30,797 nt of DNA from the NCBI GenBank assembly GCA_039831155.1, contig JBDONT010000031.1, positions 1 to 30,797 on the forward strand, written 5' to 3'. This DNA comes from Nautiliaceae bacterium (lineage in GTDB: Bacteria > Campylobacterota > Campylobacteria > Campylobacterales > Nautiliaceae). Within the stretch, counting starts at the first letter, position 1; the number at the start of each line of letters is the position of its first letter. The position numbers and the translations under genes are program-made. The notes below the pieces were generated by a model. That model had not been told where the DNA came from. It did no database searches and was given only the letters and a program-made list of their open reading frames with translations. This document shows positions 137 to 21,264 of the stretch, piece after piece.

Positions 137-883
137 TTAGTTACATTCGCTTTGATACACAAAACCTGTTGGAGTTATATTAATTTGTTTACAATGTTGA
201 ATATCACATACTAAATTAGTACAAAGCTGGATTTCAACTTTCTCTGTTAATAGTTCTCTTTCTAAATCTAAAGGATTAGTATCATTACCATCTCCTTGCA
301 ATCCTTCATTTAAATAAACATTACCATAATTATCAAATAATAGTTTTGAAGAGTTAGTAGTATTCACAGAAAAACCATTAAATAAAACTTTTACTATCCC
401 ATATTTACTAAGATTTAACTCTTCATTCCCTTCATTACCAGCTAAATATTTTTTATTTATAGGATCTTTTGCAAACTCGTAAAAAGGATATCCAACTCTA
501 TTAAACATAGAACTTGTACTACTTGAAGTGGTATAGGGAGAATCTGAAAAAATTTCATAAAAGTAATCACCATTACTTGTTTTACCTATTCTTAACTGCC
601 ACCACTGCTTAAACCAATACTTACTTCTATTGGTTTCACTTATAGTATTAGCATTAGGAAAAGGTTGATACTTATCATCTTTTAAAGCTAAACTTTGTGT
701 ATATCTTATATCTCTACTTAATCTATCTGCTGCTAATTTTAATTTATCAGGTGCAAAATTGAAACTAAAAGAAGAAACGATAATACCTATTATAATAATA
801 ACAATAACTAATTCAACTAAAGTAAATGCAGAAGAAAAATTATTTAATTTCTTCTGCTTGATCAACTTGGTATAGAATATCAT
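137..883 (-). CDS. Prepilin-type N-terminal cleavage/methylation domain protein (type II secretion/type IV pilus pseudopilin-like)
   Basis: A|FTLVELVIVIIIIGII class III signal motif with E5 and a hydrophobic helix; C-terminal cysteines. Start uncertain (ATG 883 or TTG 865); the track start at 976 runs far into aclA. Confidence 0.8.
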   Translation of the reverse strand: MIFYTKLIKQKKLNNFSSAFTLVELVIVIIIIGIIVSSFSFNFAPDKLKLAADRLSRDIRYTQSLALKDDKYQPFPNANTISETNRSKYWFKQWWQLRIGKTSNGDYFYEIFSDSPYTTSSSTSSMFNRVGYPFYEFAKDPINKKYLAGNEGNEELNLSKYGIVKVLFNGFSVNTTNSSKLLFDNYGNVYLNEGLQGDGNDTNPLDLERELLTEKVEIQLCTNLVCDIQHCKQINITPTGFVYQSECN

Positions 884-2690
884 CCCACGGATGTCTGTAC
901 ATTGGCATTCCAAGTCTTTTTTCATCAAGAATGTGCCCGATAAATCCGATACTTCTTCCGAGAATAAAGAATGCATTTAATGTCCCACTTTCAATAAATT
1001 CATTAATTTCTTTCTCAGTATACCCTAATGCTCTCCACATGTCAACCATTAAGATACCGATTGTACCGTCAACATTTAAAATTAAGTTTTCTTTTTTAGA
1101 AGTTGTTTCTTTCTCAACTTCCAATGCATAATCAAGTAAAGGTGTTGCTGGAAAGAATTCAGCTGCATATTTTTTAAGACCTTCAACCCTTTTATCCGGG
1201 TTTCTCACAGACTTAATTCTATGTCCAATACCAGGAATTGGAATACCTTGTTTTTTCATATATGCCAAGAATTCTTTAGGGTTCATTCCATTATCGTGTG
1301 CATATTTAAAGTAATATGCTGCACCATCAATAGCACCACCAAATCTTGGACCAATTGTAAGAAGACCTGTTACAAGAGATTCTACAACTGATTTACCAGC
1401 TCTTGCTGTAACTTTTGCGTTATGAGCACCACTTACTGCCGGTCCATGGTCTGCTACTGTTTTAATTACAGTTTCAATAAAATCAGTAGCCCATTTCGGA
1501 TATCTTTTCTTAAACCATAGAAGTGAAATAACATCACCAATGCTATATCCTGTATCTGGAGTTGCAACTTGGCTAATTGGAATACCAGCATATACTGCTT
1601 CTTCTCCTCTATCATCAGAAATAGTACATACGAAGTTTCTAGGTTTTCTAATTTTACCTGCTGCTAAAGCTTTGCTATAGTCTTCTGGAATTGGTGGAAC
1701 TACTGGTTCTTCGATTTCTCCGATTACACCTTCACCTTTTAGTTGTTCATATACACCTTTAATAACTTCCGGTAATTCATTAAAATTAGCCGGTACATAA
1801 ATACCTGCTTCTTTCATTGCTCTATTTTTAGCTTCCGCTGTCTCTTCATCGGCATTTGCACTTGCACCTGCGTGACCGAATTGAACACCACTTGAGAAAT
1901 GTTTAGCAATTGTACCGATACACCAACCAATTACCGGTTTTGTAATTTTTCCTTCTTTAATAGCTTCAATAATTTTATATTCTTCTCTACCACCAACTTC
2001 ACCAAGAAGAATCATATATTTAACTTTTGGATTTTTCTCCATTCTAAGCATATGGTCAATAAATGTTGAACCAACAAATCTGTCTCCACCAATTGCAACA
2101 CCCTCTGCTATTCCGTCTGCATTAAGTGCAATAATGTTACTTAATTCGTTAAATAGACCACCACTTCTTGTTACAAGTCCTGCACTTCCAGCTCTGTGAA
2201 GCTTAGATTTTACGATATTTTCAATTGTACCACCGATATTCGCAACTTTAAATGCACCTGGTGCAATAGCTCCAACTGTTGCAGGACCAATAATTGTTAC
2301 ACCTTTTTCTCTTGCGGTTTTATTCATAATTCTTGCGTGTCTTTCCGGAATACCTTCAGCCGTAATCATAATTACTCTGAATTGATCCATATTAAGAGCA
2401 TCCATAGTTACATCATAAGCCGTTCTAAATGATGCAAAGTTAAGTAATACATCTGCATTCGGATGATTTTTCACAGCTTCTGCTGTACTTCTGTAAATTG
2501 GAATCATAACCTCATCAGTTCCAAAAAAGAACTTTTCAAATTTATTTGAACTAGTTGGAGCAACTATTGCTGCAACTGATGGTTTTTCTCTTTGAATAAC
2601 ATAATCATAATCAAGCATTCTTTGAATTGCTGATTTATTATTATTCCAGAAAATTGCCTGTGTATCCCTTGTAAATAGTTCGTTAGCCAT
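840..2690 (-). CDS. aclA: ATP citrate lyase alpha subunit (reverse TCA cycle)
   Basis: CoA-binding/SucD-like N-terminal part (IIGPATVG, GDRF, phospho-His motif QFGHAGA) fused to a citryl-CoA lyase domain (DHGPAVSGAHN, GPRFGGA, PGIGHRIKS, LILNVDG); directly after aclB. Confidence 0.97.
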   Translation of the reverse strand: MANELFTRDTQAIFWNNNKSAIQRMLDYDYVIQREKPSVAAIVAPTSSNKFEKFFFGTDEVMIPIYRSTAEAVKNHPNADVLLNFASFRTAYDVTMDALNMDQFRVIMITAEGIPERHARIMNKTAREKGVTIIGPATVGAIAPGAFKVANIGGTIENIVKSKLHRAGSAGLVTRSGGLFNELSNIIALNADGIAEGVAIGGDRFVGSTFIDHMLRMEKNPKVKYMILLGEVGGREEYKIIEAIKEGKITKPVIGWCIGTIAKHFSSGVQFGHAGASANADEETAEAKNRAMKEAGIYVPANFNELPEVIKGVYEQLKGEGVIGEIEEPVVPPIPEDYSKALAAGKIRKPRNFVCTISDDRGEEAVYAGIPISQVATPDTGYSIGDVISLLWFKKRYPKWATDFIETVIKTVADHGPAVSGAHNAKVTARAGKSVVESLVTGLLTIGPRFGGAIDGAAYYFKYAHDNGMNPKEFLAYMKKQGIPIPGIGHRIKSVRNPDKRVEGLKKYAAEFFPATPLLDYALEVEKETTSKKENLILNVDGTIGILMVDMWRALGYTEKEINEFIESGTLNAFFILGRSIGFIGHILDEKRLGMPMYRHPWDDILYQVDQAEEIK

Positions 2691-4024
2691 TATTTCGCTC
2701 CTTTTTTATCATCTTCAAGTGCCATTCTTACAATATCGGTAATGTGAGTTTCCGGTCCATAAACTTCAATAGGAAGACCCAATCTTTCAGCTGCCGCTTT
2801 AATATCTTTTAAACCTTTTTCATAATTCGGTCCACCACGTCTAACATAAATTCTAACTCCAACATCTTTCATTTTATCCGCATATTTTTCAAATGCTTGA
2901 ATAATACCGGTAAATGTCTTGGCAACATCCGTAAAGTTTGCAATAGCCCCACCGATAATTAAGATTTTATCTCTACCTTGAGGGTCTTTTTCTCTTGTCA
3001 TTAAATCAAGTACAGTTTCAGTATAAAATCTTGTTTCATCAGTTGTAGGACCACCTGAATATTCTCCGTAATTTGCTAAATCTTCTACTCCACCTGCTAA
3101 ATCAGCAATAGTATCAGCATATACAACAGATGCACCACCACCAGCTACAAGAGTCCAGATTCTACCTTTCGGATTAAGAACAGTTAATTTAAGTGAAGCA
3201 CCACTTTTTGCATCTGCTTCTGCTATAGCTTTTTCTTCAGGTGATTTTTCCGGCATACCAAACGGTGTCGGGAATTCAATATCTCCCCATTTATCTTTCA
3301 TTAAAAATCCTGCCGTATCATCAAGTCTTGCAACCAAATCAAGTAGATATACATTATTACCTACAATTACAACTGGGTTAATTTCAAGATATGCAAAGTT
3401 TAGGTCTCTAAAAAATTTATAAAAGTTTACTGCAAAGTTTTTATAAACTTCTTTTTTATCTTCCGGAATATCTGCTGGAATATTTTCAGAGATAATCTTT
3501 TCAATCTCTTCATCAGTTGCGTCAATTGGAATTTTAACTTCTGTTACTTTATCCCAGTTTTCTTCAACTTCCATACCACCGTGAGCTGAAAGATAAAGCA
3601 CATCATTTGTTTCATCAAATGTAGTAGCTGCAATATAGTATTCTTCATCTTCTGTGTGAGGTGTAAATGGTTCTACGATAAAATGAGTAAGCTCACCACT
3701 TTGTCCGCTAAGAAGAGTAACTTTTCCGCTTCTTTTTTCATCAATCCATTTAGCTGCATCTTCAAGAGTCACATCACCCGGTTTATTTACTTTAAATAAA
3801 ACTAAACCGTTTTTACCCCTTTTACCAAAAAGCATATCCGGTTTTGCAACCAAAGGTTTTTCATTTAACCAATCATACCCGGGTTCTTTAGCTTTAGCTC
3901 TTAATTCATCTCCACTTGTTACAAGTACACTTTCAAACGGATAATTAAGTCCACTGAAATATTTATCCCAATTTTGGGCAAAAAGTTTTTTCCCATCATA
4001 TTCACGAATCGGTTTTTGAGCCAT
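2690..4024 (-). CDS. aclB: ATP citrate lyase beta subunit
   Basis: MAQKPIREYDGK start, KPDMLFGKRGK, LEINP, RLDDTA, AGGGASVVYAD, NYGEYSG, GGAIANFTDVA, RRGGPNY motifs; AAGGAG SD; 1-nt stop/start overlap with aclA. Confidence 0.97.
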   Translation of the reverse strand: MAQKPIREYDGKKLFAQNWDKYFSGLNYPFESVLVTSGDELRAKAKEPGYDWLNEKPLVAKPDMLFGKRGKNGLVLFKVNKPGDVTLEDAAKWIDEKRSGKVTLLSGQSGELTHFIVEPFTPHTEDEEYYIAATTFDETNDVLYLSAHGGMEVEENWDKVTEVKIPIDATDEEIEKIISENIPADIPEDKKEVYKNFAVNFYKFFRDLNFAYLEINPVVIVGNNVYLLDLVARLDDTAGFLMKDKWGDIEFPTPFGMPEKSPEEKAIAEADAKSGASLKLTVLNPKGRIWTLVAGGGASVVYADTIADLAGGVEDLANYGEYSGGPTTDETRFYTETVLDLMTREKDPQGRDKILIIGGAIANFTDVAKTFTGIIQAFEKYADKMKDVGVRIYVRRGGPNYEKGLKDIKAAAERLGLPIEVYGPETHITDIVRMALEDDKKGAK

Positions 4025-5885: not shown

Positions 5886-6782
5886 ATGCTAAAAGAAAAA
5901 CTTAAAGGAAAATATATAACACTAGAAACAACTCCTCCTAAATTACCGACTGTAGATTTAATGATTGAAAATATAAAAAAAGCCGACGTCATTAAATACA
6001 TAGACGGATTTTCCACAACCGACTGTCCTCTTAGTAAATTAAAATACAATTCAATCATTGCAGCTTTTAAGCTCCAACAGACATTCAAAAAACCGGTAAT
6101 TGCTACAATGAGTATGAGAGATAGAAATAAAATAGCCCTTCAAAGCGATTTACTGGGAGCAAACGATTTAGACGTAACGCATATCTTAGCCCTAACAGGA
6201 GACCCGGCAAAAATGAGTGACCAACCGAATACAAAAGGAGTAGTCGAAGGAAGCAGCATTTTACTACTAGAAATAATAAGAGCTTTTAACAACGGAATGG
6301 ATTACAGTGGAAAAGAGTTTAAAATAAAACCAAAACCGATTACCCCTTTTGCGGTAAGTAACTCTTACGCCAAAAACTTTTCTTATATTGAAAAAAAGAT
6401 GTATAAAAAAATTAAAAATTATGCAGTAGGAATTATAACCCAACCGGTATTTGATTTGGAAATAGCAAAAAAACTATTAAATATAAAACAAAATATCAAT
6501 AATGAATTTAATGACGAAAGAAAAGAGTCTGAAATTGTATTCGGATTTTTTCCCATTACAAAACTAAAAACCGCCCAATTTCTAAAATCTCACGTCCCAG
6601 GCATTTTTGTACCGGATATCTGGATAGAAAAACTCATAAAAGCTCATAAAATAAGTGAAGAAGAAGAGTTTAAAGTCGGAATGGAGTTATCAAGAAAACT
6701 TTTTAAAAACATTTTAAAATTACACCCAAAAGTCCATATAATGACTGCTAATAAATTTGAAATAGTAAAAGAGCTTTTTTAA
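5886..6782 (+). CDS. metF: 5,10-methylenetetrahydrofolate reductase
   Basis: LETTPPK, TDCP, MRDRNKIALQS, LALTGDP, ITQPVFD, VPGIFVP motifs. Start moved to ATG 5886 (AAGGG SD upstream). Confidence 0.88.
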   Translation: MLKEKLKGKYITLETTPPKLPTVDLMIENIKKADVIKYIDGFSTTDCPLSKLKYNSIIAAFKLQQTFKKPVIATMSMRDRNKIALQSDLLGANDLDVTHILALTGDPAKMSDQPNTKGVVEGSSILLLEIIRAFNNGMDYSGKEFKIKPKPITPFAVSNSYAKNFSYIEKKMYKKIKNYAVGIITQPVFDLEIAKKLLNIKQNINNEFNDERKESEIVFGFFPITKLKTAQFLKSHVPGIFVPDIWIEKLIKAHKISEEEEFKVGMELSRKLFKNILKLHPKVHIMTANKFEIVKELF

Positions 6783-7603
6783 AAAGCTCTTAAATAACTT
6801 ACTAAGAATACGTTAGAATACGAATCTGCTCCACTTTTACTAAATTTACTTCTATTATAACTAACTTTTACGCTAGAAACTTTATCTAAAGAGTATTTAA
6901 CTGCTAGTCCATAACTATATTTATAATCTTCTCCCAAATTATAAACAGTAAATCCACCGTTTGCAACTTTATAAGCGTTTTTTCCAAAACTTCCACTTAT
7001 TGTTGTAGCCCAAGGTCCTTTATAGTTTTCCAATTTTAAATCAATATCCGTATAATTTGTTTTAGACGTATATCCGGACTTTGAAATATGAATATAATTT
7101 AATTTAGCCTCGGCATAAAAAGCTCCATCTTCCGCATAATAATTACCGAAATTAAATCCATATTTAGGAGAAATTTGATAAGCTTTAAAATTATCATAAG
7201 TAGACATATAAACATCAACTCCGACATTATATTTTAAATACTCATAATAAGTAGCTCCTGCGAACACTACATTATCGTATTTATCACTATTGTCTTTTTG
7301 GTTGATAAACATATTATGAATTCCGATTCTATAAGCATAATTATTACCATAATAATAATTACCCAAAAACGTAATATCGGTCTGTTTATAATTAGGGGTA
7401 GTATCTTTATATTTTATATACACATATTCCGTATCCAATTCAAACTTAAAAGGCAAAGAATCGATACTAGCATATACACCTACCAATCCGGCTTTATCTT
7501 TAGCGGTATTACCGCTATAATCTATAAAAGCTCCATACGGCATCACGTTCGCCGCCATTAAAGTCGTACCGAACAATGCTGCTATAGATAATAACTTTTT
7601 CAT
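6779..7603 (-). CDS. Putative outer-membrane beta-barrel protein, last gene of the RRE/ATP-grasp operon
   Basis: Sec signal peptide (MKKLLSIAALFGTTLMA), Tyr/Gly-rich alternating amphipathic strands, terminal strand VFLVSYLRAF ending in Phe (BAM signal); ATGA coupling to the upstream gene. Confidence 0.7.
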   Translation of the reverse strand: MKKLLSIAALFGTTLMAANVMPYGAFIDYSGNTAKDKAGLVGVYASIDSLPFKFELDTEYVYIKYKDTTPNYKQTDITFLGNYYYGNNYAYRIGIHNMFINQKDNSDKYDNVVFAGATYYEYLKYNVGVDVYMSTYDNFKAYQISPKYGFNFGNYYAEDGAFYAEAKLNYIHISKSGYTSKTNYTDIDLKLENYKGPWATTISGSFGKNAYKVANGGFTVYNLGEDYKYSYGLAVKYSLDKVSSVKVSYNRSKFSKSGADSYSNVFLVSYLRAF

Positions 7604-8181
7604 TTTATCTCCTTTAGTTTATATCCTAAATTTTTTTGATTTACTATTTCAAAACCAAGTTTTCTAAGATGAGAAATCAAAACTTTTATAGAATCAAGAC
7701 TCTCTATACTTTCACATTCCTGTAGAATTTCTTCTTTAGAAAGATATCTGTTACGATTTTTTATCAACGTTTCTAAAAGTTCTTTTTCAGCTCCACTTAA
7801 TTTAACGGGGATTGAACTTTTATACAACTCCCTCGCATTAAAATTATATAATAAATCCCCAAATTTAAAAACAAAATTTGTAGAATTTAAAACCTTTTTT
7901 TTTAAATACCTAAGGCGTATCAACAGCTTTTCATATTCATTATAAGAATAGCAATAATCACCTACTTCCAAAGCTTTTTTATAAATAAAAACATTACATT
8001 CATATGCTAAAAAAATAATCGTACTTTTTACAAAATCTTTTATTTCCAAATACTCTTTAAAATAATTAAAATCTACTACCAATACATCAAATTTTTTATT
8101 CAACACCTCATCAAAAAAAGATTCTTCATCCACTTTTTTTGCATTAGGTATATCCAGAAAAGAAAAATTTAATACTCTCAT
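7600..8181 (-). CDS. OmpR/PhoB-type winged-helix regulator with degenerate receiver domain
   Basis: C-terminal LSGAEKELLETL...LSKEEIL...IKVLISHLRK...GYKL Trans_reg_C signature; N-terminal receiver keeps VLVVD but lacks the acidic pocket, the Thr/Ser and the conserved Lys. Confidence 0.8.
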   Translation of the reverse strand: MRVLNFSFLDIPNAKKVDEESFFDEVLNKKFDVLVVDFNYFKEYLEIKDFVKSTIIFLAYECNVFIYKKALEVGDYCYSYNEYEKLLIRLRYLKKKVLNSTNFVFKFGDLLYNFNARELYKSSIPVKLSGAEKELLETLIKNRNRYLSKEEILQECESIESLDSIKVLISHLRKLGFEIVNQKNLGYKLKEIK

Positions 8182-8765
8182 TTATTAAAATATTCTTTTG
8201 CTACAACGTTATTAGGGTCTAGAATAAGCACGTTTTTAAAAATTTTACCGGCATCTCTTTTTGTAAGCTCATAAATTTTACCAAGTTCAACTAAAAACAG
8301 AACACTCGTAGGATATATACTTAACATTCTATTTACCAATATTTCAGCTACTTTATAGTTTTTTAAAGCTACAAGAGATAAGACTTCATAATAATTCCCA
8401 TAATAATTATAATAATCACTCTTTAAAATCACATCTCCTATTTTCAACGCATTTGAATAATCCCCCATAGCATAGTAAACTCTCATCATTCCAAGCTTAG
8501 CTTCCAATGAAGAAGGAATACTCATAGAAGCCTTTTGATAATGAAAAATAGAATTTTTATAATTCTTATTCAAATAAAAAAGCCATCCAAGCCTTAGATT
8601 AACCGTATAAGCATTAAGATATTTATTATAAAGAGGAATGAGAACTTTTATAGCGTCTTTATAATCCCCCATTTTTTCATAATTATAAGATTCATAATAA
8701 ATCTTTTTTATATCCATTGCAAACAAACCGACAAACAAACTAATAACCAAAATTATCTTTTTCAT
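8178..8765 (-). CDS. Exported tetratricopeptide-repeat protein
   Basis: Signal peptide MKKIILVISLFVGLFA; TPR-like units (LRLGWLFYLNKNYKNSIFHYQKA; LGMMRVYYAMGDYSNAL; LGKIYE...VLILDPNN). Confidence 0.8.
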   Translation of the reverse strand: MKKIILVISLFVGLFAMDIKKIYYESYNYEKMGDYKDAIKVLIPLYNKYLNAYTVNLRLGWLFYLNKNYKNSIFHYQKASMSIPSSLEAKLGMMRVYYAMGDYSNALKIGDVILKSDYYNYYGNYYEVLSLVALKNYKVAEILVNRMLSIYPTSVLFLVELGKIYELTKRDAGKIFKNVLILDPNNVVAKEYFNK

Positions 8766-10773
8766 TATATACTCTCCTTAATTCCATTCCGTTTTTCAAT
8801 TTTATTTTATCAAAACCTTTCTCATAAAACGAAAAATCCACCTCTCCGAATTTAGATAGAATTTTTAACTGTTCTTTTTTATAAACAACTTCTTTATTAA
8901 AAATTTTGAAATTAAAAGGCAATAAAAATTCAAACAATAATTTCTTAACCCCACTAAATCTAAATTCAAAAGAGATAATGTCTTTATATTCAACTTCTTT
9001 ATTTATCAAAGGAACTTTAGGAGCCAGCTTAAACAACTCTTTTAAAAAGCTCTCTTTTCCTTCATATTCATAAAAATAAAACAGCTTCTCATCCAAATAA
9101 AAAAACAGCTTATTCTCTCCGTCCCAAAAATAGAATTCTCCCTTTTCATTCATTTTTACCGTTATCTCTTTTTGAGAAATTTTTTCTCCCTCTTTTAATA
9201 CATCATATTTAAAAACATCATCCAAAATAAAAGTAAGTCTTAATTTCATAGATTTATCAATCACACTCGCTTCTATCTCCTCACCCTTTTTAGGTGAATC
9301 ATAATAATAAAGTCTATTGTCTTTTATAAAATCCACAAACTTAAAAGGTAAAGTCTCACTTCCCAAAACCCCGTATTTTTGAACTTGAATATGGATGTGA
9401 GGCTCCGGAGAATATCCACTGTTTCCACATTTACCTATAATATCTCCACCCCTAACATAATCCCCTACTTTTACAGTAATGGAATTTTGCATTAAATGAG
9501 AAATTTCAACAAAATATCCAAAATCACTTTTTATAATAATATAATTCCCCCAATTGTTAACTCTATCTACATTTCCTATAAAATTATCCGGTAAATCATT
9601 ACGCAAAGCAACCACATATCCATTGATAGGAGCCGTTACAACTTTTCCAAAAGCATAATAATCCTCTAAAAACAACCCGTCATTAGCATATGTTTTTCCA
9701 TTCTTTTTAATAACAAAATCATAAGCATATTTCCAGCTTCCCTTATGAGTCCACTCATCGTCAAAAGCTTGATATACACTCCACTTTCCGGTAAACGGGA
9801 GGTTTATTTTAATATCGTTTCCTCCAAATCTAAAAACCAAACTCAAATAAGAAAGCAGAGATTTTTCGGGAGTCGATTTTATAGCATAATTAAAATATTT
9901 ATACCCTACGCTAAATAAAAGCATAATAAACAAAAGCGTAATTAAATTAAAAGGAAGAGTATAAACCGGCAAAGAATAGATATTAAAAAACACTTCCATT
10001 GAATCAATCAACACAACAGAAAGCACCACTCCCAAAAAAGCCAAAAGAAAACTTTTAATATTGGGAATTAAAAATATTCCTCCAAGTGCCATAGCAATTA
10101 ACAAAAAGTTAAAGTTATAAGGAGAATAAAGGGCTTGAGAAAAAGGAATAAATAAAGAGTGTACAAAAACCCCTATCCAAAATCCCACAAAAGCTAGAAA
10201 AAACAGAATTCTAGAATAAAAAAGAAGTATCAACGCTATAAAAAACCCGGCAACCGTATAAGGTAAAAAGAAAATTGTCCCTAACGACTTGAAAAAAGAA
10301 TCAAAAGGCAAATTTATATCAAAAAGAGCTTTTCTGTGAAGCAAATTGATAAATAAATTGGTATATTTTAAACTGGCTAAATAAAAAAGCATACTCACAA
10401 AAGCAAAAGGCAAAGATAAAATAGGCAAAGAATACTTAATAAAAACCCTATTTAAGCTAAAAGAGACTAAAAATGTCAAAATCGAAAGCAATATAGTTAA
10501 GATTATCGTTACATACGTTACATCAAAAAAATACCCGACCCCCATTCCCACCAATAAAGAGTTATAAAGATAAAACCCGTATTTTAAATACTCATCCCTG
10601 ATATTAATAAATTCGGCAAACAAAATCGTAGAAATAATAGCAACAAGACCTAAAATCCCCACACTAGGCAATAAAAAAGAGAGCAAAAATAAAAATGCCC
10701 CTACTTTTAAATCCTGTAAAAAAAGAATGGAAACATAAGGTTTAAAAATAAATTTTATCTTTTTTATTTTCAA
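8740..10773 (-). CDS. Urea-transporter (UT)-fold membrane domain fused to an M23 zinc metallopeptidase domain
   Basis: N-terminal ~290 aa with about 10 TM segments and the duplicated UT signature LPILSLPF / LPVYTLPF plus YNSLLVG / FNFLLIA; then M23 motifs H343...D352 (HKGSWKYAYD), APINGYV, GNYIII, GDIIGKCGNSGYS, H459-x-H461. TTG start. Confidence 0.85.
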   Translation of the reverse strand: MKIKKIKFIFKPYVSILFLQDLKVGAFLFLLSFLLPSVGILGLVAIISTILFAEFINIRDEYLKYGFYLYNSLLVGMGVGYFFDVTYVTIILTILLSILTFLVSFSLNRVFIKYSLPILSLPFAFVSMLFYLASLKYTNLFINLLHRKALFDINLPFDSFFKSLGTIFFLPYTVAGFFIALILLFYSRILFFLAFVGFWIGVFVHSLFIPFSQALYSPYNFNFLLIAMALGGIFLIPNIKSFLLAFLGVVLSVVLIDSMEVFFNIYSLPVYTLPFNLITLLFIMLLFSVGYKYFNYAIKSTPEKSLLSYLSLVFRFGGNDIKINLPFTGKWSVYQAFDDEWTHKGSWKYAYDFVIKKNGKTYANDGLFLEDYYAFGKVVTAPINGYVVALRNDLPDNFIGNVDRVNNWGNYIIIKSDFGYFVEISHLMQNSITVKVGDYVRGGDIIGKCGNSGYSPEPHIHIQVQKYGVLGSETLPFKFVDFIKDNRLYYYDSPKKGEEIEASVIDKSMKLRLTFILDDVFKYDVLKEGEKISQKEITVKMNEKGEFYFWDGENKLFFYLDEKLFYFYEYEGKESFLKELFKLAPKVPLINKEVEYKDIISFEFRFSGVKKLLFEFLLPFNFKIFNKEVVYKKEQLKILSKFGEVDFSFYEKGFDKIKLKNGMELRRVYNEKDNFGY

Positions 10774-10777
10774 TTTC

Positions 10778-12115
10778 TTAACCTTTTAAGAAATCCGGAA
10801 TAATCTCTTTTTCCACAACATACTCTAAATTATCGGCTTCTCTTATTAAGTGAGTATTTGAGTCTTTGTCTATAAGTACAATTTTAGGTCTATATCTGAT
10901 AAACTGCATAGATTGAGTAACGTTATAAGCCCCTACCGGCCAAATACTAAGTACCGTACCTCTCTCAAGAGGTGGTAACATAATATTTTCTGCAATAATA
11001 TCAATATTCATACATAAAGGTCCGTTTATCTGACTATGTTCATTTAACCCTTCATATCTTTTATCAAGAGATATCTCAAAATTGTACCAAAACGCCGTAT
11101 ACAAAAGATTCACTCCAGCATCTACAATATAACTCTTTTTACCATCCGGCATTCTTTTGGAAGCAAATACACTTGTTAATAAAAATCCGGCTTCATCTAT
11201 CAAAGCACGACCGGTTTCTAAATAAAGCTTAGGAAGTTTCCCTTTATTATGTTCAAAAATAGCATTAGTAACAGCCTCTGCATATTCATCGGCACTAGGG
11301 ACTATAACTTCCGGAGCCTGATATACACCTTTTAGTCTATTTTTTGAAGCAAATCCACCTCCTATATCAATATATTCAATCTCATATCCGAAATCTTTTT
11401 CAACTCTGTTTTTAAGTTCTATCAATTTTTTAGTTTCATTTGTATAAGCTTCGGCACTTAACATAAAAGTACCTATATGAGAATGAAGTCCGATTAAATA
11501 AAGTTTTTTACCTTCAAAAATTCTTTTTATGGCATCATAAGCCTCACCGTTATCGATATTAAATCCGAATCTACTCCATTGAGGATAAACTCCCGTATCC
11601 ATATTACATCTAATAGCCACCGGAATTTCTATTCCAAGCTCTTCCGCTATCTCTTCAAGGTCATTTATTTCATACCAATGGTCAATATGAATTTTAGCTC
11701 CTTCTTTTACTGCTACTTTTAAAGTTTCTTTTGGTTTGTAAGGTCCATTAAAGATTATATCCTTTCCTTCAATTCCAAGACGTCTTGCTTTTTGGTATTC
11801 AAATTCACTAACAACTTCGGCTTTACTTCCAAGTTTATGATAAATTTTACAAATAGCGTCAAAATAGTTTGTTTTATAACTCCACCAAAACTCAACTTCC
11901 GGATATCTACTTGAAAAAGCGTTTTTAAACTCAAGATATTTATCTTCAATTGCTCTTTGACTAAACACAAAAAGTGGACTTCCGTATTTTTCCGTAAGTT
12001 CTCTAACACTTACCCCGTCAATCTCACCTCTTATTTTTTGGGTTTTAAGTGGACTTCCATATTTACTCGCCATTGCAAAATCAACTCTATTAATAGTAGG
12101 TTTTTCATAATTCAT
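10778..12115 (-). CDS. Fold-type III PLP-dependent decarboxylase (diaminopimelate/ornithine decarboxylase superfamily, MccE-like; probably not LysA) with N-terminal extension
   Basis: SYKTN (PLP Lys), IFNGPYK, SRFG, HSHIGT, DIGGGF, ETGR, DAG, GPLCMNID, GAY motifs; AAGGAG SD. Confidence 0.85.
   Translation of the reverse strand: MNYEKPTINRVDFAMASKYGSPLKTQKIRGEIDGVSVRELTEKYGSPLFVFSQRAIEDKYLEFKNAFSSRYPEVEFWWSYKTNYFDAICKIYHKLGSKAEVVSEFEYQKARRLGIEGKDIIFNGPYKPKETLKVAVKEGAKIHIDHWYEINDLEEIAEELGIEIPVAIRCNMDTGVYPQWSRFGFNIDNGEAYDAIKRIFEGKKLYLIGLHSHIGTFMLSAEAYTNETKKLIELKNRVEKDFGYEIEYIDIGGGFASKNRLKGVYQAPEVIVPSADEYAEAVTNAIFEHNKGKLPKLYLETGRALIDEAGFLLTSVFASKRMPDGKKSYIVDAGVNLLYTAFWYNFEISLDKRYEGLNEHSQINGPLCMNIDIIAENIMLPPLERGTVLSIWPVGAYNVTQSMQFIRYRPKIVLIDKDSNTHLIREADNLEYVVEKEIIPDFLKG
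11972..12064 (-). repeat. Direct repeat encoding KYGSPL twice in the decarboxylase N-terminus
   Basis: aagtggacttccgtattt (11972-11989) and aagtggacttccatattt (12047-12064): 17/18 identical, 75 nt (25 codons) apart, in frame. Confidence 0.85.
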
Positions 12116-12130
12116 AATTCACTCCTTAAA

Positions 12131-13141
12131 TTAAATCTCTTTTTTTGATATCAACGTAGAAAATTTATTAAAATCAACCATCGTCTCTTCTACATATCTT
12201 ACATACATCTTTTCGCTAGGATAATCAAATCTTTTTTCAACTTTTTTACCTTCAATTAAATCCAATAAACTTTGAGGCAGATTAACTCCAAGCATTGTGG
12301 AAAAATACACCCACGCCGGAAATCTAGGGTTTATTTCTATTAAATATATATCTTTTCCATCACTCATAGCCTCAAACTCAAAAGCACCTCTCCAACCTAT
12401 CATTTCAACAAATTTCTTACTTACACTGAAAAGCTGTTCATTTTTAATACTCACGGCACTCCAAACTTTACCTAAATCCGTAGTGGTTAATTTTTTCATT
12501 CCCATACCTGCTACAAGACTCTCTCCATCTCCAATACCTACAAAGTTAATTTCTATCCCACTTATAACCTCTTGAACCAAAAGAGGGAATCCCCATTCAT
12601 TTGATATTTTATAATAATACTCAATCGCTTCATCCAAATTATAAGCTTTATAAGCTTTATAATAATTTCCTTTTACCATTACCGGAAATCCAATTTCTTT
12701 AGTGGCTTTTATCAAATCATCAAGAGAAACCACCTCTATGGTTTTTGGATGTTTAACACCAAGTTTTTTACTAAATTCTGGTAATTTACTTTTATCCCTC
12801 ATCTCAAAACACTCAAGGCTCGGCAGATAAGTTTTAATTCCAAGCTCTTTTATCTCTTTTTGATATTTAATATAAAGAGGAAGTTCTGCATCAAGGGTCG
12901 GAATTGCAACTTCAATATTTGACTTTTCTTTAATATCCGTTATTCTTTTTTTAAACTCTTCATACCCTAAACTAGGATACGGCATAAGATAAACTTTTTC
13001 AAAAAGCCCCTGATAAATCCCCGGTTCATTAGGGTCGTAACTAAGCCCTATTAAAGTATTTTTATCCATTAAACTTTTCGCAACCGGAATTCCGGGTGCC
13101 GGATTGTCAGTATTGTTAAGCCCACTTACTGCCACTCTCAT
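12131..13141 (-). CDS. ATP-grasp ligase (CarB-like single ATP-grasp), substrate unknown
   Basis: RDKSKL, IGFPVMVKG, LVQEVISGIE, FEFEAM, IYLIEINPRF ATP-grasp motifs; ATGA overlap with the RRE gene. Confidence 0.88.
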   Translation of the reverse strand: MRVAVSGLNNTDNPAPGIPVAKSLMDKNTLIGLSYDPNEPGIYQGLFEKVYLMPYPSLGYEEFKKRITDIKEKSNIEVAIPTLDAELPLYIKYQKEIKELGIKTYLPSLECFEMRDKSKLPEFSKKLGVKHPKTIEVVSLDDLIKATKEIGFPVMVKGNYYKAYKAYNLDEAIEYYYKISNEWGFPLLVQEVISGIEINFVGIGDGESLVAGMGMKKLTTTDLGKVWSAVSIKNEQLFSVSKKFVEMIGWRGAFEFEAMSDGKDIYLIEINPRFPAWVYFSTMLGVNLPQSLLDLIEGKKVEKRFDYPSEKMYVRYVEETMVDFNKFSTLISKKEI

Positions 13142-13374
13142 TTTATAAGCTCATATACTTTAAGTTTTTGAAAAAAATCTTCAACATCTATATAAACATC
13201 TCTACAACTTTTCCCACTCTCTTGAGATAAAATCTTTACAATCTCTTCTTTACTTTTTCCTTCTTTAATAAGCTGAATAATCTTTTTTGCAGATTCATTT
13301 AGCTGATAAGATGTCCCAAGTGAAGGAATAAATCCCATATTATTTTCGTCAATTATCATTTCATGTAACAACAT
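13138..13374 (-). CDS. Stand-alone PqqD-family / RiPP recognition element (RRE) protein
   Basis: 78 aa; three short strands then SYQLNESAKKIIQLI, SKEEIVKILSQE, DVYIDVEDFFQKLKVYELI, matching the PqqD beta3-alpha3 pattern (LN..A..I; D...F...L....LI); AAGGAG SD at 13386-13381. Confidence 0.82.
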   Translation of the reverse strand: MLLHEMIIDENNMGFIPSLGTSYQLNESAKKIIQLIKEGKSKEEIVKILSQESGKSCRDVYIDVEDFFQKLKVYELIK

Positions 13375-13452: not shown

Positions 13453-16253
<2,801 letters not shown>

Positions 16254-16262
16254 CACAATCCT

Positions 16263-19418: not shown

Positions 19419-20204
19419 TTATTCAATATGAGAAACGACCTTTATAATTTTAGAATCCGGTCTAAAGAAATAGGCTTTTTCATCATATTCGAATTGAGAG
19501 AGAATATCTCTTATTATGTTGATTCTAGCTCTTTTTTTATCGTTGGCATCCACTATAACCCACGGTGCGTAAGGAGTTGAAGTTGAAGCGAACATATCTT
19601 CTTTAGCTTTTTGATACTCATCATACTTTTCATAACTTTTCCAATCAAGACTGGATAATTTCCACTTTTTAAGAGGGTCCGTTTCTCTTGCTTTTAATCT
19701 TCTATACATCTCTTCTTTTGAAATGTTAAGCCAATATTTAAAAAACTTTATCCCGTCATCCACAATCATCTCTTCAAATCTAGGACACTGTCTTATAAAT
19801 TTCAAATACTCCTCTTTCGTACAAAATCCCATAACCCTCTCAACCCCGGCACGGTTATACCAGCTTCTATCAAACAAAACCATCTCTCCACCTGAAGGAA
19901 AATGTGGCACATAACGTTGAAAATACCACTGCGTTTTTTCTCTATCACTCGGTTTATCAAGTGCGACACTTCTTGCGAATCTAGGATTTAAATGTTCAAG
20001 AATTCTTTTAATAGTCCCGTCTTTTCCGGCGGTATCTATCCCTTCAAATAAAATTATCATTCTTTTATTATTTTTTCTAAGCCATGTTTGAAGCTTTACA
20101 AGTTCAATTTGAAGTTTCAAAAGCTCTTTTTCATAAAATTTAGTTCTCATTTTGCCTTTTTTTTTAAAGGCTTTATCTTTAAATTTATATTCGGGAAGTT
20201 TCAT
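19419..20204 (-). CDS. ppk2: Polyphosphate kinase 2 (class I-type)
   Basis: FEGIDTAGKDG Walker A, QWYFQRY, FDRSWYNR Walker B, DPLKKWKLS, APW...DKKRAR. Start moved to ATG 20204 (AAGGAG SD). Confidence 0.95.
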   Translation of the reverse strand: MKLPEYKFKDKAFKKKGKMRTKFYEKELLKLQIELVKLQTWLRKNNKRMIILFEGIDTAGKDGTIKRILEHLNPRFARSVALDKPSDREKTQWYFQRYVPHFPSGGEMVLFDRSWYNRAGVERVMGFCTKEEYLKFIRQCPRFEEMIVDDGIKFFKYWLNISKEEMYRRLKARETDPLKKWKLSSLDWKSYEKYDEYQKAKEDMFASTSTPYAPWVIVDANDKKRARINIIRDILSQFEYDEKAYFFRPDSKIIKVVSHIE

Positions 20205-20217
20205 TTCATCTCCTTTA

Positions 20218-20241
20218 TGATACAATATCTCAATTATAACA
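20218..20241. promoter_or_regulatory. Overlapping divergent extended -10 elements for cinA and ppk2
   Basis: Plus TGaTACAAT (20218-20226) and minus TGtTATAAT (20241-20233) in a 49-bp gap. Confidence 0.55.
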
Positions 20242-20253
20242 AAAAGGATACAA

Positions 20254-21264
20254 ATGGAAGTGATATTCGTAGGCAAAGAATGGAAATTTAAAAACGCCCT
20301 AAAAGAAGAACTTTTAAAGCAAATTGACTACAACTCCTTAAGATATATTAACAGTTTTGATATAGATTTTAAACCCACAACCGAAACCCTAATCGTTACC
20401 AATAAAAAAACATATCCGTTAGTATCAAGAATTTTGGCAAACTTAACAAACCAACAACTCGAAGTTAAAGAAGATTTTTTAGTACCTCAACACGCCAAAT
20501 TCTCAAAAAACAGTTTCATTCTTAATTATTTCTATCCGGTAAATGTAATTTTACTGGAAAACAAAGTACCGGAAATTTTCATAATAACCCCCGAATACGA
20601 ACACATAAACGTATTTAAATTCGACAAAGAAACGACTATGATGTTTTTAGAACCCATTTTTAACGCTCACAAGCTCAACTACACAGTAATTGAAAATGAA
20701 GGTGGTTTTACCGAAATCGTAACCGAAACGTTAGAGGAAATAGTAAAAAAAGAGATTTTAAACACAATTCCTACTATAGTATTTGGAAATTTATTCGAAC
20801 ACATCGTAAAAAACCTACCTCCTAAAAAAATAACCTTTGCCGAAAGTTGTACCGGAGGACTTATAGCAAGCAATCTTACTAAAATTAGTGGTTCTAGTGG
20901 ATGTTTTGACGGAAGCGTAGTTACATACGCCAATAAAATCAAACACGAATGGCTGGGAGTTGAGGAGATAACTCTTGAAAAATACGGAGCAGTAAGCGAA
21001 CAAACGGTAAAAGAGATGCTCCTTGGAGCCATTGAGATAAGCAAAGCCGATTACGCTATAGCCGTAAGTGGAATAGCCGGACCAACCGGTGGAACACCCC
21101 AAAAACCGGTAGGTACCGTTTTTATAGGGGTTGCCGATAACAAAAGCCTAAAAGTAGAACACCACCTGTTTAAAGGAGACAGAAACTACATCCAATATCA
21201 AGCTATGATGAACGCAATTAGAATGTTTATTGATTTTAGTGGACTTTATAGTAAAATTCCATAA
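20254..21264 (+). CDS. cinA: CinA-family protein with C-terminal NMN deamidase (PncC) domain
   Basis: FAESCTGG, SGSS, VTYANKIK, YGAVS, SGIAGPTGG, KPVGTV; N-terminal half divergent. Confidence 0.9.
   Translation: MEVIFVGKEWKFKNALKEELLKQIDYNSLRYINSFDIDFKPTTETLIVTNKKTYPLVSRILANLTNQQLEVKEDFLVPQHAKFSKNSFILNYFYPVNVILLENKVPEIFIITPEYEHINVFKFDKETTMMFLEPIFNAHKLNYTVIENEGGFTEIVTETLEEIVKKEILNTIPTIVFGNLFEHIVKNLPPKKITFAESCTGGLIASNLTKISGSSGCFDGSVVTYANKIKHEWLGVEEITLEKYGAVSEQTVKEMLLGAIEISKADYAIAVSGIAGPTGGTPQKPVGTVFIGVADNKSLKVEHHLFKGDRNYIQYQAMMNAIRMFIDFSGLYSKIP

Follow-up and report, generated by a model that had tools for sequence, protein, structure and literature searches.

Proteins of the urea transporter (UT) family are usually viewed as urea channels, and the solved members have both termini in the cytoplasm. 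M23 metallopeptidases, in turn, are usually viewed as cell-wall or secreted enzymes. Among decarboxylases, FslC (7kh2) and BtrK (a glutamyl-acyl carrier protein decarboxylase, 2j66/7ru7) both act on an amino acid that is already conjugated. M23 has been listed among the modules located C-terminal to bacterial UT domains, with one model shown (Cagliani et al., Biol Direct 2026, PMC12998343), and the passages on the pair give it neither a function nor a context. Here, a protein with this domain pair was analyzed that is encoded by a Nautiliaceae bacterium (Campylobacterota; assembly GCA_039831155.1) on contig JBDONT010000031.1, positions 1 to 30,797 (this whole stretch of 30,797 nucleotides is called the window below). 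It consists of a UT domain, an M23 domain and a further C-terminal domain (CTD) and is referred to as UT-M23-CTD. The pair of UT and M23 domains is thus already in print, and the main new result is the conserved context of the gene, which is accompanied by genes for a PqqD-type peptide chaperone, an ATP-grasp ligase and a decarboxylase dependent on pyridoxal phosphate (PLP). A search of full-text literature, outside the coverage of which lie most subscription journals, returned nothing on UT/M23 with ATP-grasp, decarboxylase or PqqD; of the papers listed in a broader search, none deals with this cassette as judged by title and abstract.

A conserved gene cassette around the UT-M23-CTD gene

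Seven minus-strand genes follow one another head to tail in the window, with overlaps of 4-26 nt or gaps of 4-15 nt, in the order PqqD, ATP-grasp ligase, decarboxylase, UT-M23-CTD, tetratricopeptide repeat (TPR) protein, winged-helix protein and outer-membrane barrel. The genes up to and including that of the fusion protein are:

13138..13374, minus strand: PqqD-family peptide chaperone, similar to the recognition elements (RRE) of peptides that are synthesized ribosomally and modified post-translationally (RiPPs), 78 aa (Pfam PF05402 PqqD, 39.1 bits, cut-off 23.4)
12131..13141, minus strand: ATP-grasp ligase, carbamoyl-phosphate-synthase-like of the PRK12767 type, 336 aa (Pfam)
10778..12115, minus strand: PLP-dependent decarboxylase with the diaminopimelate (DAP)/ornithine decarboxylase fold, 445 aa (Pfam Orn_Arg_deC_N and Orn_DAP_Arg_deC)
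8740..10773, minus strand: UT-M23-CTD fusion gene, 677 aa, TTG start

The fusion gene starts 4 nt past the stop codon of the decarboxylase gene upstream of it, and the stop of the PqqD gene overlaps the start of the ATP-grasp gene by 4 nt. This 78-aa PqqD open reading frame (ORF) at the head of the operon had been overlooked in an earlier, sequence-only reading of the same DNA.

A collection with one genome per species was searched with an 11-row alignment as query, and 401 stretches were found to encode a relative of the fusion protein. The cassette was then counted in the best 80 loci of these 401 stretches, which come from several phyla (Campylobacterota, Aquificota, Francisella, Nitrospinia, Calditrichota and others) and in which many misses fall at contig ends. 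With the neighbors from the window as tblastn queries, the decarboxylase was found in 73 of the 80 loci and the ATP-grasp ligase in 68, followed by the TPR gene (62), the barrel gene (57) and the winged-helix gene (27), while in 61-62 loci the gene immediately upstream of ATP-grasp is a PqqD ORF. Gene order is constant across the loci, and the genes mostly abut. In five genomes the ATP-grasp gene is not adjacent, and all five have a strong orthologue (E <= 1e-154) elsewhere in the assembly. The Francisella loci hold just PqqD, ATP-grasp, decarboxylase and UT-M23 amid unrelated genes, and this gene content suggests that the core of the cassette consists of these four genes. Alternative contexts were considered and rejected: the neighbors in L067, L078 and L048 are unrelated housekeeping genes.

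The association extends to whole genomes. In a sample of 301 genomes from the phylum, the 16 genomes with M23-CTD are also those with the ATP-grasp ligase, and the remaining 285 have neither. Counted per family, 7/7, 5/6 and 3/12 genomes are positive, with 0/90 and 0/124 in the two largest families. Since these genomes are related and not independent, the co-occurrence is taken as a strong association and not as a statistic. Two of the 16 genomes carry a broken UT-M23 frame beside an intact, linked ATP-grasp gene (one TAA in G296, several stops in G067); these may be pseudogenes or assembly errors.

The family of the fusion protein is large. Of the 540 cluster representatives that a search with residues 300-677 retrieved at E <= 1e-30, almost all have about 700 aa and match from about residue 300, and an architecture this uniform argues that the fusion is not due to chance. 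The family, labeled 'urea transporter' in public records, is concentrated in vent chemolithoautotrophs and occurs as well in Francisella, Pirellulales and Bacteriovoracaceae; the closest named relatives of the window's protein are from Nautilia, Caminibacter and Lebetimonas.

The partner proteins were assigned as follows. The PqqD protein is the sole PqqD-family match in the genome of the window, and its relatives score 46.7-60.9 bits against Pfam PqqD. Among the NCBIfam models the protein is closest to NF033530, the lasso-peptide PqqD chaperone, without reaching the cut-off of that model, and the copy from Persephonella passes TIGR04353, the HPr-rel-A PqqD model (41.3 vs 35). The ATP-grasp ligase matches Pfam ATPgrasp_Ter (35.2 bits) and ATP-grasp_3, reaches 86 bits with the PRK12767 models of NCBIfam, below their cut-offs, and gave sequence matches in the PDB to the large chain of carbamoyl-phosphate synthase, to 2pn1 and to cyanophycin synthetase. 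The decarboxylase scores 235 bits against the LysA model TIGR01048, below its cut-off of 297.9, and the true lysA (541 bits) is located on another contig (C20) of the same genome, by which the cassette enzyme is a paralogue and not the housekeeping LysA. Its nearest solved relative is the N-citrylornithine decarboxylase FslC (7kh2, 187.8 bits), and BtrK was matched as well. The first ~28 residues of the decarboxylase form a conserved stretch (..Y.KP.I...SK.GSP...Q) that precedes the usual start of LysA-type alignments. This conservation is no evidence of cleavage by M23, for which the sequence-only reading had named the N-terminal peptide of the decarboxylase as a test substrate.

Downstream of the fusion gene, the operon continues with:

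8178..8765, minus strand: TPR protein with a signal-like N-terminal segment, 195 aa (Pfam TPR families)
7600..8181, minus strand: winged-helix protein, 193 aa (Pfam Trans_reg_C at residues 125-175)
6779..7603, minus strand: predicted outer-membrane beta-barrel, YaiO/OmpG/Slam-like, with signal peptide, 274 aa (Atlas)
6769..6791, minus strand: terminator-like hairpin just past the last cassette gene (pattern match; 2 such sites in the region, 2.4 expected by shuffling)

The start of the TPR gene overlaps the end of the fusion gene by 26 nt (8740-8765), and in Pirellulales-type relatives the two form one polypeptide. In the N-terminal 110 residues of the OmpR-type winged-helix protein no receiver domain was detected by Pfam; it is possibly an orphan or degenerate response regulator. 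The barrel protein matched no Pfam or NCBIfam family. Its neighbors in the Atlas are YaiO, by features (0.96) and by structure (TM-score 0.79), OmpG, SlipAM and TPR-barrel fusions, and the N-terminus is signal-like in 48 of 56 homologues. None of the seven cassette proteins (0/7) matched a PADLOC defence model. A complex prediction for M23-CTD (residues 296-677) and the ATP-grasp ligase with PqqD as partner gave scores of 0.10 and 0.22, against a mark of 0.32, and counts neither for nor against an interaction. Exact matches to the cassette were obtained on contigs of two metatranscriptome runs from one vent study, one of which bridges the decarboxylase/UT-M23 junction while another spans the ATP-grasp and PqqD genes; DNA carry-over is possible for these contigs, and parts of the UT-M23/TPR region have little or no cover.

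Outside the cassette, genes for a PPK2 polyphosphate kinase, an IMP dehydrogenase (IMPDH) and a GatA-type amidase flank it (19419-20276, minus strand; 13453-16256, minus strand). Adjacency of IMPDH was seen in just 4 of the 80 loci, so IMPDH is not regarded as part of the system. Two adjacent genes for the subunits of ATP-citrate lyase, with Citrate_bind, ATP-citrate synthase ATP-grasp, CoA-ligase and citrate-synthase domains, are located at 840-4024 on the minus strand, which fits an autotroph of the Nautiliaceae type using the reductive TCA cycle.

Domain structure and topology of UT-M23-CTD

The domains of the fusion protein and the putative active-site residues of its peptidase are encoded at the following positions:

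9919..10755, minus strand: UT (urea-channel fold) domain, residues 7-285 (Pfam PF03253 and Foldseek)
9334..9816, minus strand: M23 metallopeptidase domain, about residues 320-480 (Pfam and PDB sequence matches)
9745-9747, minus strand: codon of H343, putative Zn/catalytic residue of M23
9718-9720, minus strand: codon of D352, putative Zn/catalytic residue of M23
9496-9498, minus strand: codon of H426, putative Zn/catalytic residue of M23
9397-9399, minus strand: codon of H459, putative Zn/catalytic residue of M23
9391-9393, minus strand: codon of H461, putative Zn/catalytic residue of M23
8743..9321, minus strand: C-terminal beta-rich domain, residues 485-677 (AlphaFold2 model)

The UT domain scores 204.1 bits against PF03253 (cut-off 25) and covers profile positions 2-290 of 292. 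An AlphaFold2 (AF2) model of the whole protein, built on 35 relatives, has a mean pLDDT of 93.2, and in Foldseek the membrane part aligns with 3k3f, a urea channel from Desulfovibrio, over 319 columns (E 2.3e-14, TM-score 0.80 by target) as well as with 8xd9 and 4ezc, human and bovine UT structures being included among the matches. As modeled, the ten-helix, two-repeat UT channel fold is present, which bears out the UT-like fold with duplicated LPxx[ST]LPF motifs described in the sequence-only reading. Both pore-type motifs, LPILSLPF (116-123) and LPVYTLPF (268-275), fit the paired pattern LPxx[ST]xPF, and in the 35-relative alignment conservation is complete or no lower than 90% at P117, L119, P122, F123, P269 and P274. 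This conservation across the family argues for a pore under selection and favors a working pore over a mere anchor. Against TIGR03441, the equivalog model of the urea transporter Yut, the protein scores 94.7 bits at a cut-off of 274.6.

Peptidase_M23 (PF01551) was detected at residues 376-468 with 48.3 bits (cut-off 28.7). Sequence matches in the PDB to TagE/Csd, lysostaphin and LytM extend across the HxH region; H459-I-H461 and H426 align to lysostaphin and TagE. The middle part of the model resembles the M23 domains of Csd1/Csd2, DipM, lysostaphin and ShyA in Foldseek (E ~2e-6 to 5e-5). The upstream pair, H343-x8-D352, has a spacing other than the canonical HxxxD zinc motif; longer His-Asp spacing is known in the M23A (LasA) subfamily. 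H343, D352, H426, H459 and H461 are all invariant in 35 diverse relatives with 27-63% identity to the query, so that the M23 domain with the apparent ligands H343-x8-D352 and H459-x-H461 described previously is confirmed, and the zinc peptidase is apparently catalytically intact. UT and M23 are the only domains reported by Pfam in the fusion protein, with no C39, ABC, LysM or SH3 domain, and judged by its profile scores it is a true member of both families.

The remaining ~190 residues, left unassigned in the earlier reading, keep that status: residues 485-677 match no Pfam family, and a Foldseek search against the PDB gave nothing at E <= 0.001, the top match being LolA/RseB (E 3.7e-3, TM-score ~0.3). 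Folded alone by AF2, they form a confident, separate beta-rich domain (pLDDT 92.8). In an exhaustive VIA-align search the best match was 4fvs, a Parabacteroides lipoprotein (Z 7.9, in a range common among unrelated models), followed by the lipid-binding barrels of vitellogenin and ApoB (Z 6-6.8) and several LolA chains (Z 5-5.7), values that are likewise common for unrelated models. The domain thus bears a weak resemblance to an open-barrel, LolA-like arrangement and has no family assignment. In the Atlas, a structure search retrieved this domain C-terminal to M23 both in the UT-M23 cluster and in another cluster, the M23 proteins of which have 415 aa and no UT. The latter comprises 133 proteins, commonest in Bacteroidota, with M23 and the same CTD (TM-score 0.80 by query), and is possibly a split or free-standing form. 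Short M23-CTD representatives were also considered as free-standing forms and rejected, being mostly fragments: P0263 (402 aa) clusters with a 724-aa member, and P0219 sits on a 1605-bp contig.

The side of the membrane on which the peptidase resides was deduced from several features. The UT domain aligns over the whole solved fold of ten transmembrane (TM) helices, and a clear TM helix between UT and M23 was found in none of 128 full-length representatives; one of them (P0199) has a marginal hydrophobic stretch within the M23 domain. In four representatives of ~1075 aa, one of them from Pirellulales, UT-M23-CTD is followed by exactly one TM helix and then by TPR repeats, and in three of these four long forms Lys and Arg are richer on the CTD-side flank of the extra helix than on its TPR-side flank. 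Stand-alone TPR proteins have a signal-like hydrophobic N-terminus in 54 of 61 homologues and in the window copy (MKK, then a hydrophobic stretch). The single TM helix of the fused forms and the signal-like N-terminus of the free TPR proteins together place the TPR repeats outside and M23 inside. Across the family, the lysine-rich N-terminus of the UT protein is net positive (mean 2.49 K/R vs 1.37 D/E), as is the 12-residue linker after TM10 (mean 1.54 K/R vs 0.54 D/E), while the long central UT loop is net negative (mean 1.97 K/R vs 2.23 D/E), a charge bias that fits both termini being inside. A cytoplasmic position of M23 and CTD, as the sequence-only reading had supposed for the peptidase, is therefore well supported at the level of predicted topology. 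M23 enzymes are characterized as extracytoplasmic and acting on peptidoglycan; the domain described here is predicted to be cytoplasmic and has no signal peptide.

A proposed peptide-based small-molecule pathway and its alternatives

We tentatively favor, at somewhat less than even confidence, the view that UT-M23-CTD is the inner-membrane part of a peptide-based small-molecule pathway, in which M23 frees a peptide-bound product of ligase and decarboxylase at the channel. The substrate of M23 is probably such a peptide-bound product and not the cell wall. In this pathway the M23 domain and the beta-barrel CTD would hang from the last UT helix into the cytoplasm. The PqqD-like chaperone would hold a peptide, to which the ATP-grasp ligase would attach an amino acid by an amide bond, and the PLP decarboxylase would act on the conjugated amino acid in the manner of FslC and BtrK. 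The membrane-tethered M23 domain might then cleave the amide, so that the small product is set free where the UT pore opens to the cytoplasm and exits via the pore, and in most lineages the periplasmic TPR protein and the outer-membrane barrel could continue the route across the envelope. Coupling of cleavage to passage had been suggested in the earlier reading, with a role of UT as a ligand sensor as the alternative. The coupling remains plausible and has gained indirect support from the PqqD gene at the head of the operon and the joint occurrence of ATP-grasp and M23-CTD in the same genomes; a precursor gene to go with it was not found.

This precursor was sought in two ways. In 62 loci, no peptide recurred among the ORFs of 12-90 aa that lie up to 450 nt upstream of PqqD. 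When 10,206 ORFs of 18-75 aa taken from the 80 loci were compared all against all, the 15 largest clusters were out-of-frame shadows of large genes, and no conserved small ORF was found outside the large genes in the 80 loci, where blastp-short could miss short divergent peptides. Urease was looked for as well, and its alpha subunit (TIGR01792) was not found in the genome, which is 96.7% complete. That no urease was detected speaks against an involvement in the use of urea.

Several points weigh against the pathway. No candidate gene for a substrate or scaffold peptide was found in or beside the cassette in the 80 loci, and it is unusual for a chaperone of the PqqD type to have no peptide gene in its vicinity. 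The pores of solved UT channels are narrow and let small amides without charge through; a product that is an amine would carry a charge and thus be an odd permeant. The score of the decarboxylase with FslC (187.8 bits) is just above that with an archaeal DAP decarboxylase (173.7 bits), and a conjugated substrate is assigned to it by analogy. The spacing of H343-x8-D352 departs from HxxxD, H343 is a putative metal ligand, and the cytoplasmic placement of M23 is a predicted topology. No role is assigned to the CTD. Finally, TPR and barrel genes are absent near the Francisella loci, so the envelope-spanning part is not universal.

An alternative explanation is a lasso-like maturation of a RiPP, in which the leader bound by PqqD belongs to a precursor whose gene lies elsewhere and M23 serves as leader peptidase. 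The ATP-grasp ligase would make an amide or macrolactam, the decarboxylase would alter a terminus or side chain, and the UT fold would be a membrane anchor or oligomerization platform beside a TPR-barrel export route. The best NCBIfam match of the PqqD protein points in this direction, a split RRE with a protease, an ATP-dependent amide-forming enzyme and a membrane exporter is the layout of lasso loci, and TPR protein and barrel would suit secretion of a cargo too large for the UT pore. Precursors, however, nearly always adjoin their enzymes, and in the 80 loci neither a precursor gene in the cluster nor a conserved small ORF outside the large genes was found. Moreover, no graspetide or lasso family model was matched above its cut-off, and the UT pore motifs are strongly conserved, which an anchor would not require. 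RiPP maturation in this form is regarded as unlikely. Cytoplasmic recycling or editing of DAP-containing wall peptides was weighed too, with M23 cutting bonds similar to those of stem peptides, the LysA paralogue decarboxylating DAP and the ATP-grasp enzyme re-ligating in a Ddl-like manner. UT fold and PqqD have no place in known recycling, no recycling genes of the mur, mpl or amp type are linked to it in the window, and the cassette is patchy (found in 16 of the 301 genomes sampled from the phylum) where peptidoglycan is universal. We consider this explanation distinctly unlikely, even with all three enzyme families including known DAP or D-Ala peptide enzymes, M23 matching MepM, ShyA, Pgp3 and Csd at weak E-values and lysA being the NCBIfam model closest to the decarboxylase.

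The resemblance to FslC, the best solved relative of the decarboxylase, raises the question of a polyamine or siderophore-like metabolite, comparable to rhizoferrin and made without a peptide carrier. Here, the ATP-grasp ligase would join a carboxylic acid to ornithine, lysine or DAP, an FslC-like enzyme would decarboxylate the conjugate, the membrane protein would export it and the barrel would serve export or re-uptake. Cytoplasmic enzymes combined with an inner-membrane protein and an outer-membrane barrel do recall siderophore loci, but no role is left for the PqqD chaperone or for the invariant M23 active site, and such a metabolite seems improbable. An ordinary urea or ammonia channel, the appended domains of which just gate or sense, would agree with the complete UT fold, its pore motifs and the public name 'urea transporter'. 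The invariance of the five M23 catalytic positions, the score far below the Yut cut-off, the failure to find a urease alpha subunit in the genome and the strict linkage to ligase and decarboxylase all speak against it and make it quite improbable. M23, LolA-like folds, TPR proteins and outer-membrane barrels are also typical envelope components, as they would be if UT-M23-CTD were a classical periplasmic cell-wall hydrolase anchored by a UT fold of inverted topology. Such an orientation would place the fused TPR repeats in the cytoplasm, whereas free TPR proteins have signal-like N-termini; the UT N-terminus is lysine-rich, a clear extra TM helix is lacking in the 128 representatives, and partners from the same operon need ATP and PLP. 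This arrangement is hardly to be expected.

Returning to the release of a peptide-bound product by M23 at the channel, a more complete picture would be that the UT fold was recruited as the pore by which a small molecule exits (or enters), this molecule being assembled by ATP-grasp ligase and PLP decarboxylase on a peptide held by the chaperone and freed by M23 docked beneath the pore, with TPR protein and barrel completing the path, and that this machine was not recognized before. In this full form the proposal is rather doubtful. If true, UT-M23-CTD would be the first cytoplasmic M23 protein with a non-wall substrate and the first member of the UT family with a physiological permeant other than urea, the label 'urea transporter' of this large family would be misleading, and both folds would have found a new use in a new route to a peptide-derived metabolite. 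The four-gene core is a compact unit that is directly testable by heterologous expression.

Comparison with known systems

With the UT channels (dvUT, 3k3f; mammalian UT-A and UT-B) the fusion protein shares the full ten-helix fold (TM-score 0.80-0.85 by target) and both pore motifs. It differs in the ~390 cytoplasmic residues (M23 and beta domain) that are appended, in a Ser in the first pore motif, where solved channels have Thr, and in lying far below the Yut cut-off in a genome in which no urease was found. With the M23/LytM peptidases (lysostaphin, LytM, MepM/ShyA and Helicobacter Csd1-3) it has in common the fold, the catalytic His, the HxH motif and the upstream His/Asp pair, whereas the pair is spaced as H-x8-D instead of HxxxD, with ~29 residues from the Asp to the conserved strand that comes next. 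Unlike these enzymes, the domain has a predicted position in the cytoplasm, is fused to a channel fold and comes without a signal peptide or a LysM/SH3 wall-binding domain.

TPR and outer-membrane barrel translocons (Slam, YaiO-type, BcsC and PgaA) are resembled by the periplasmic TPR protein and the ~270-aa barrel that are encoded together, and the structural neighbors of the barrel in the Atlas include clusters of TPR-barrel fusions; in some lineages of the present family, in contrast, TPR is fused to the inner-membrane protein. FslC and BtrK are, by similarity alone, the nearest or near solved relatives of the cassette decarboxylase, while the ligase partner here is an ATP-grasp enzyme of another type.

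The pathways of lasso peptides (B1/B2/C/D) and of carrier peptides (LysW/LysX/LysK; pearlin) likewise combine a PqqD-type chaperone, an ATP-dependent amide-forming enzyme, a product-releasing peptidase and a membrane component. Their peptidases are transglutaminase-like or M20 and not M23, their ligases are Asn-synthetase-like or LanB-like and not ATP-grasp, and the precursor or carrier gene was not found here in the 80 loci. Neither an Asn-synthetase-like cyclase nor a transglutaminase-like protease was reported for the cassette proteins by Pfam and NCBIfam. The C39-ABC exporters offer a functional analogy, since they too join a processing peptidase in the cytoplasm to a component for translocation across the membrane; the fusion protein differs from them in having no C39, ABC or ATPase domain, and for a peptide a UT pore would be far too narrow. 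Taken together, the system shares the logic, not the enzymes, of the lasso and carrier-peptide pathways, and it works like a C39-ABC exporter without being a member of that class.

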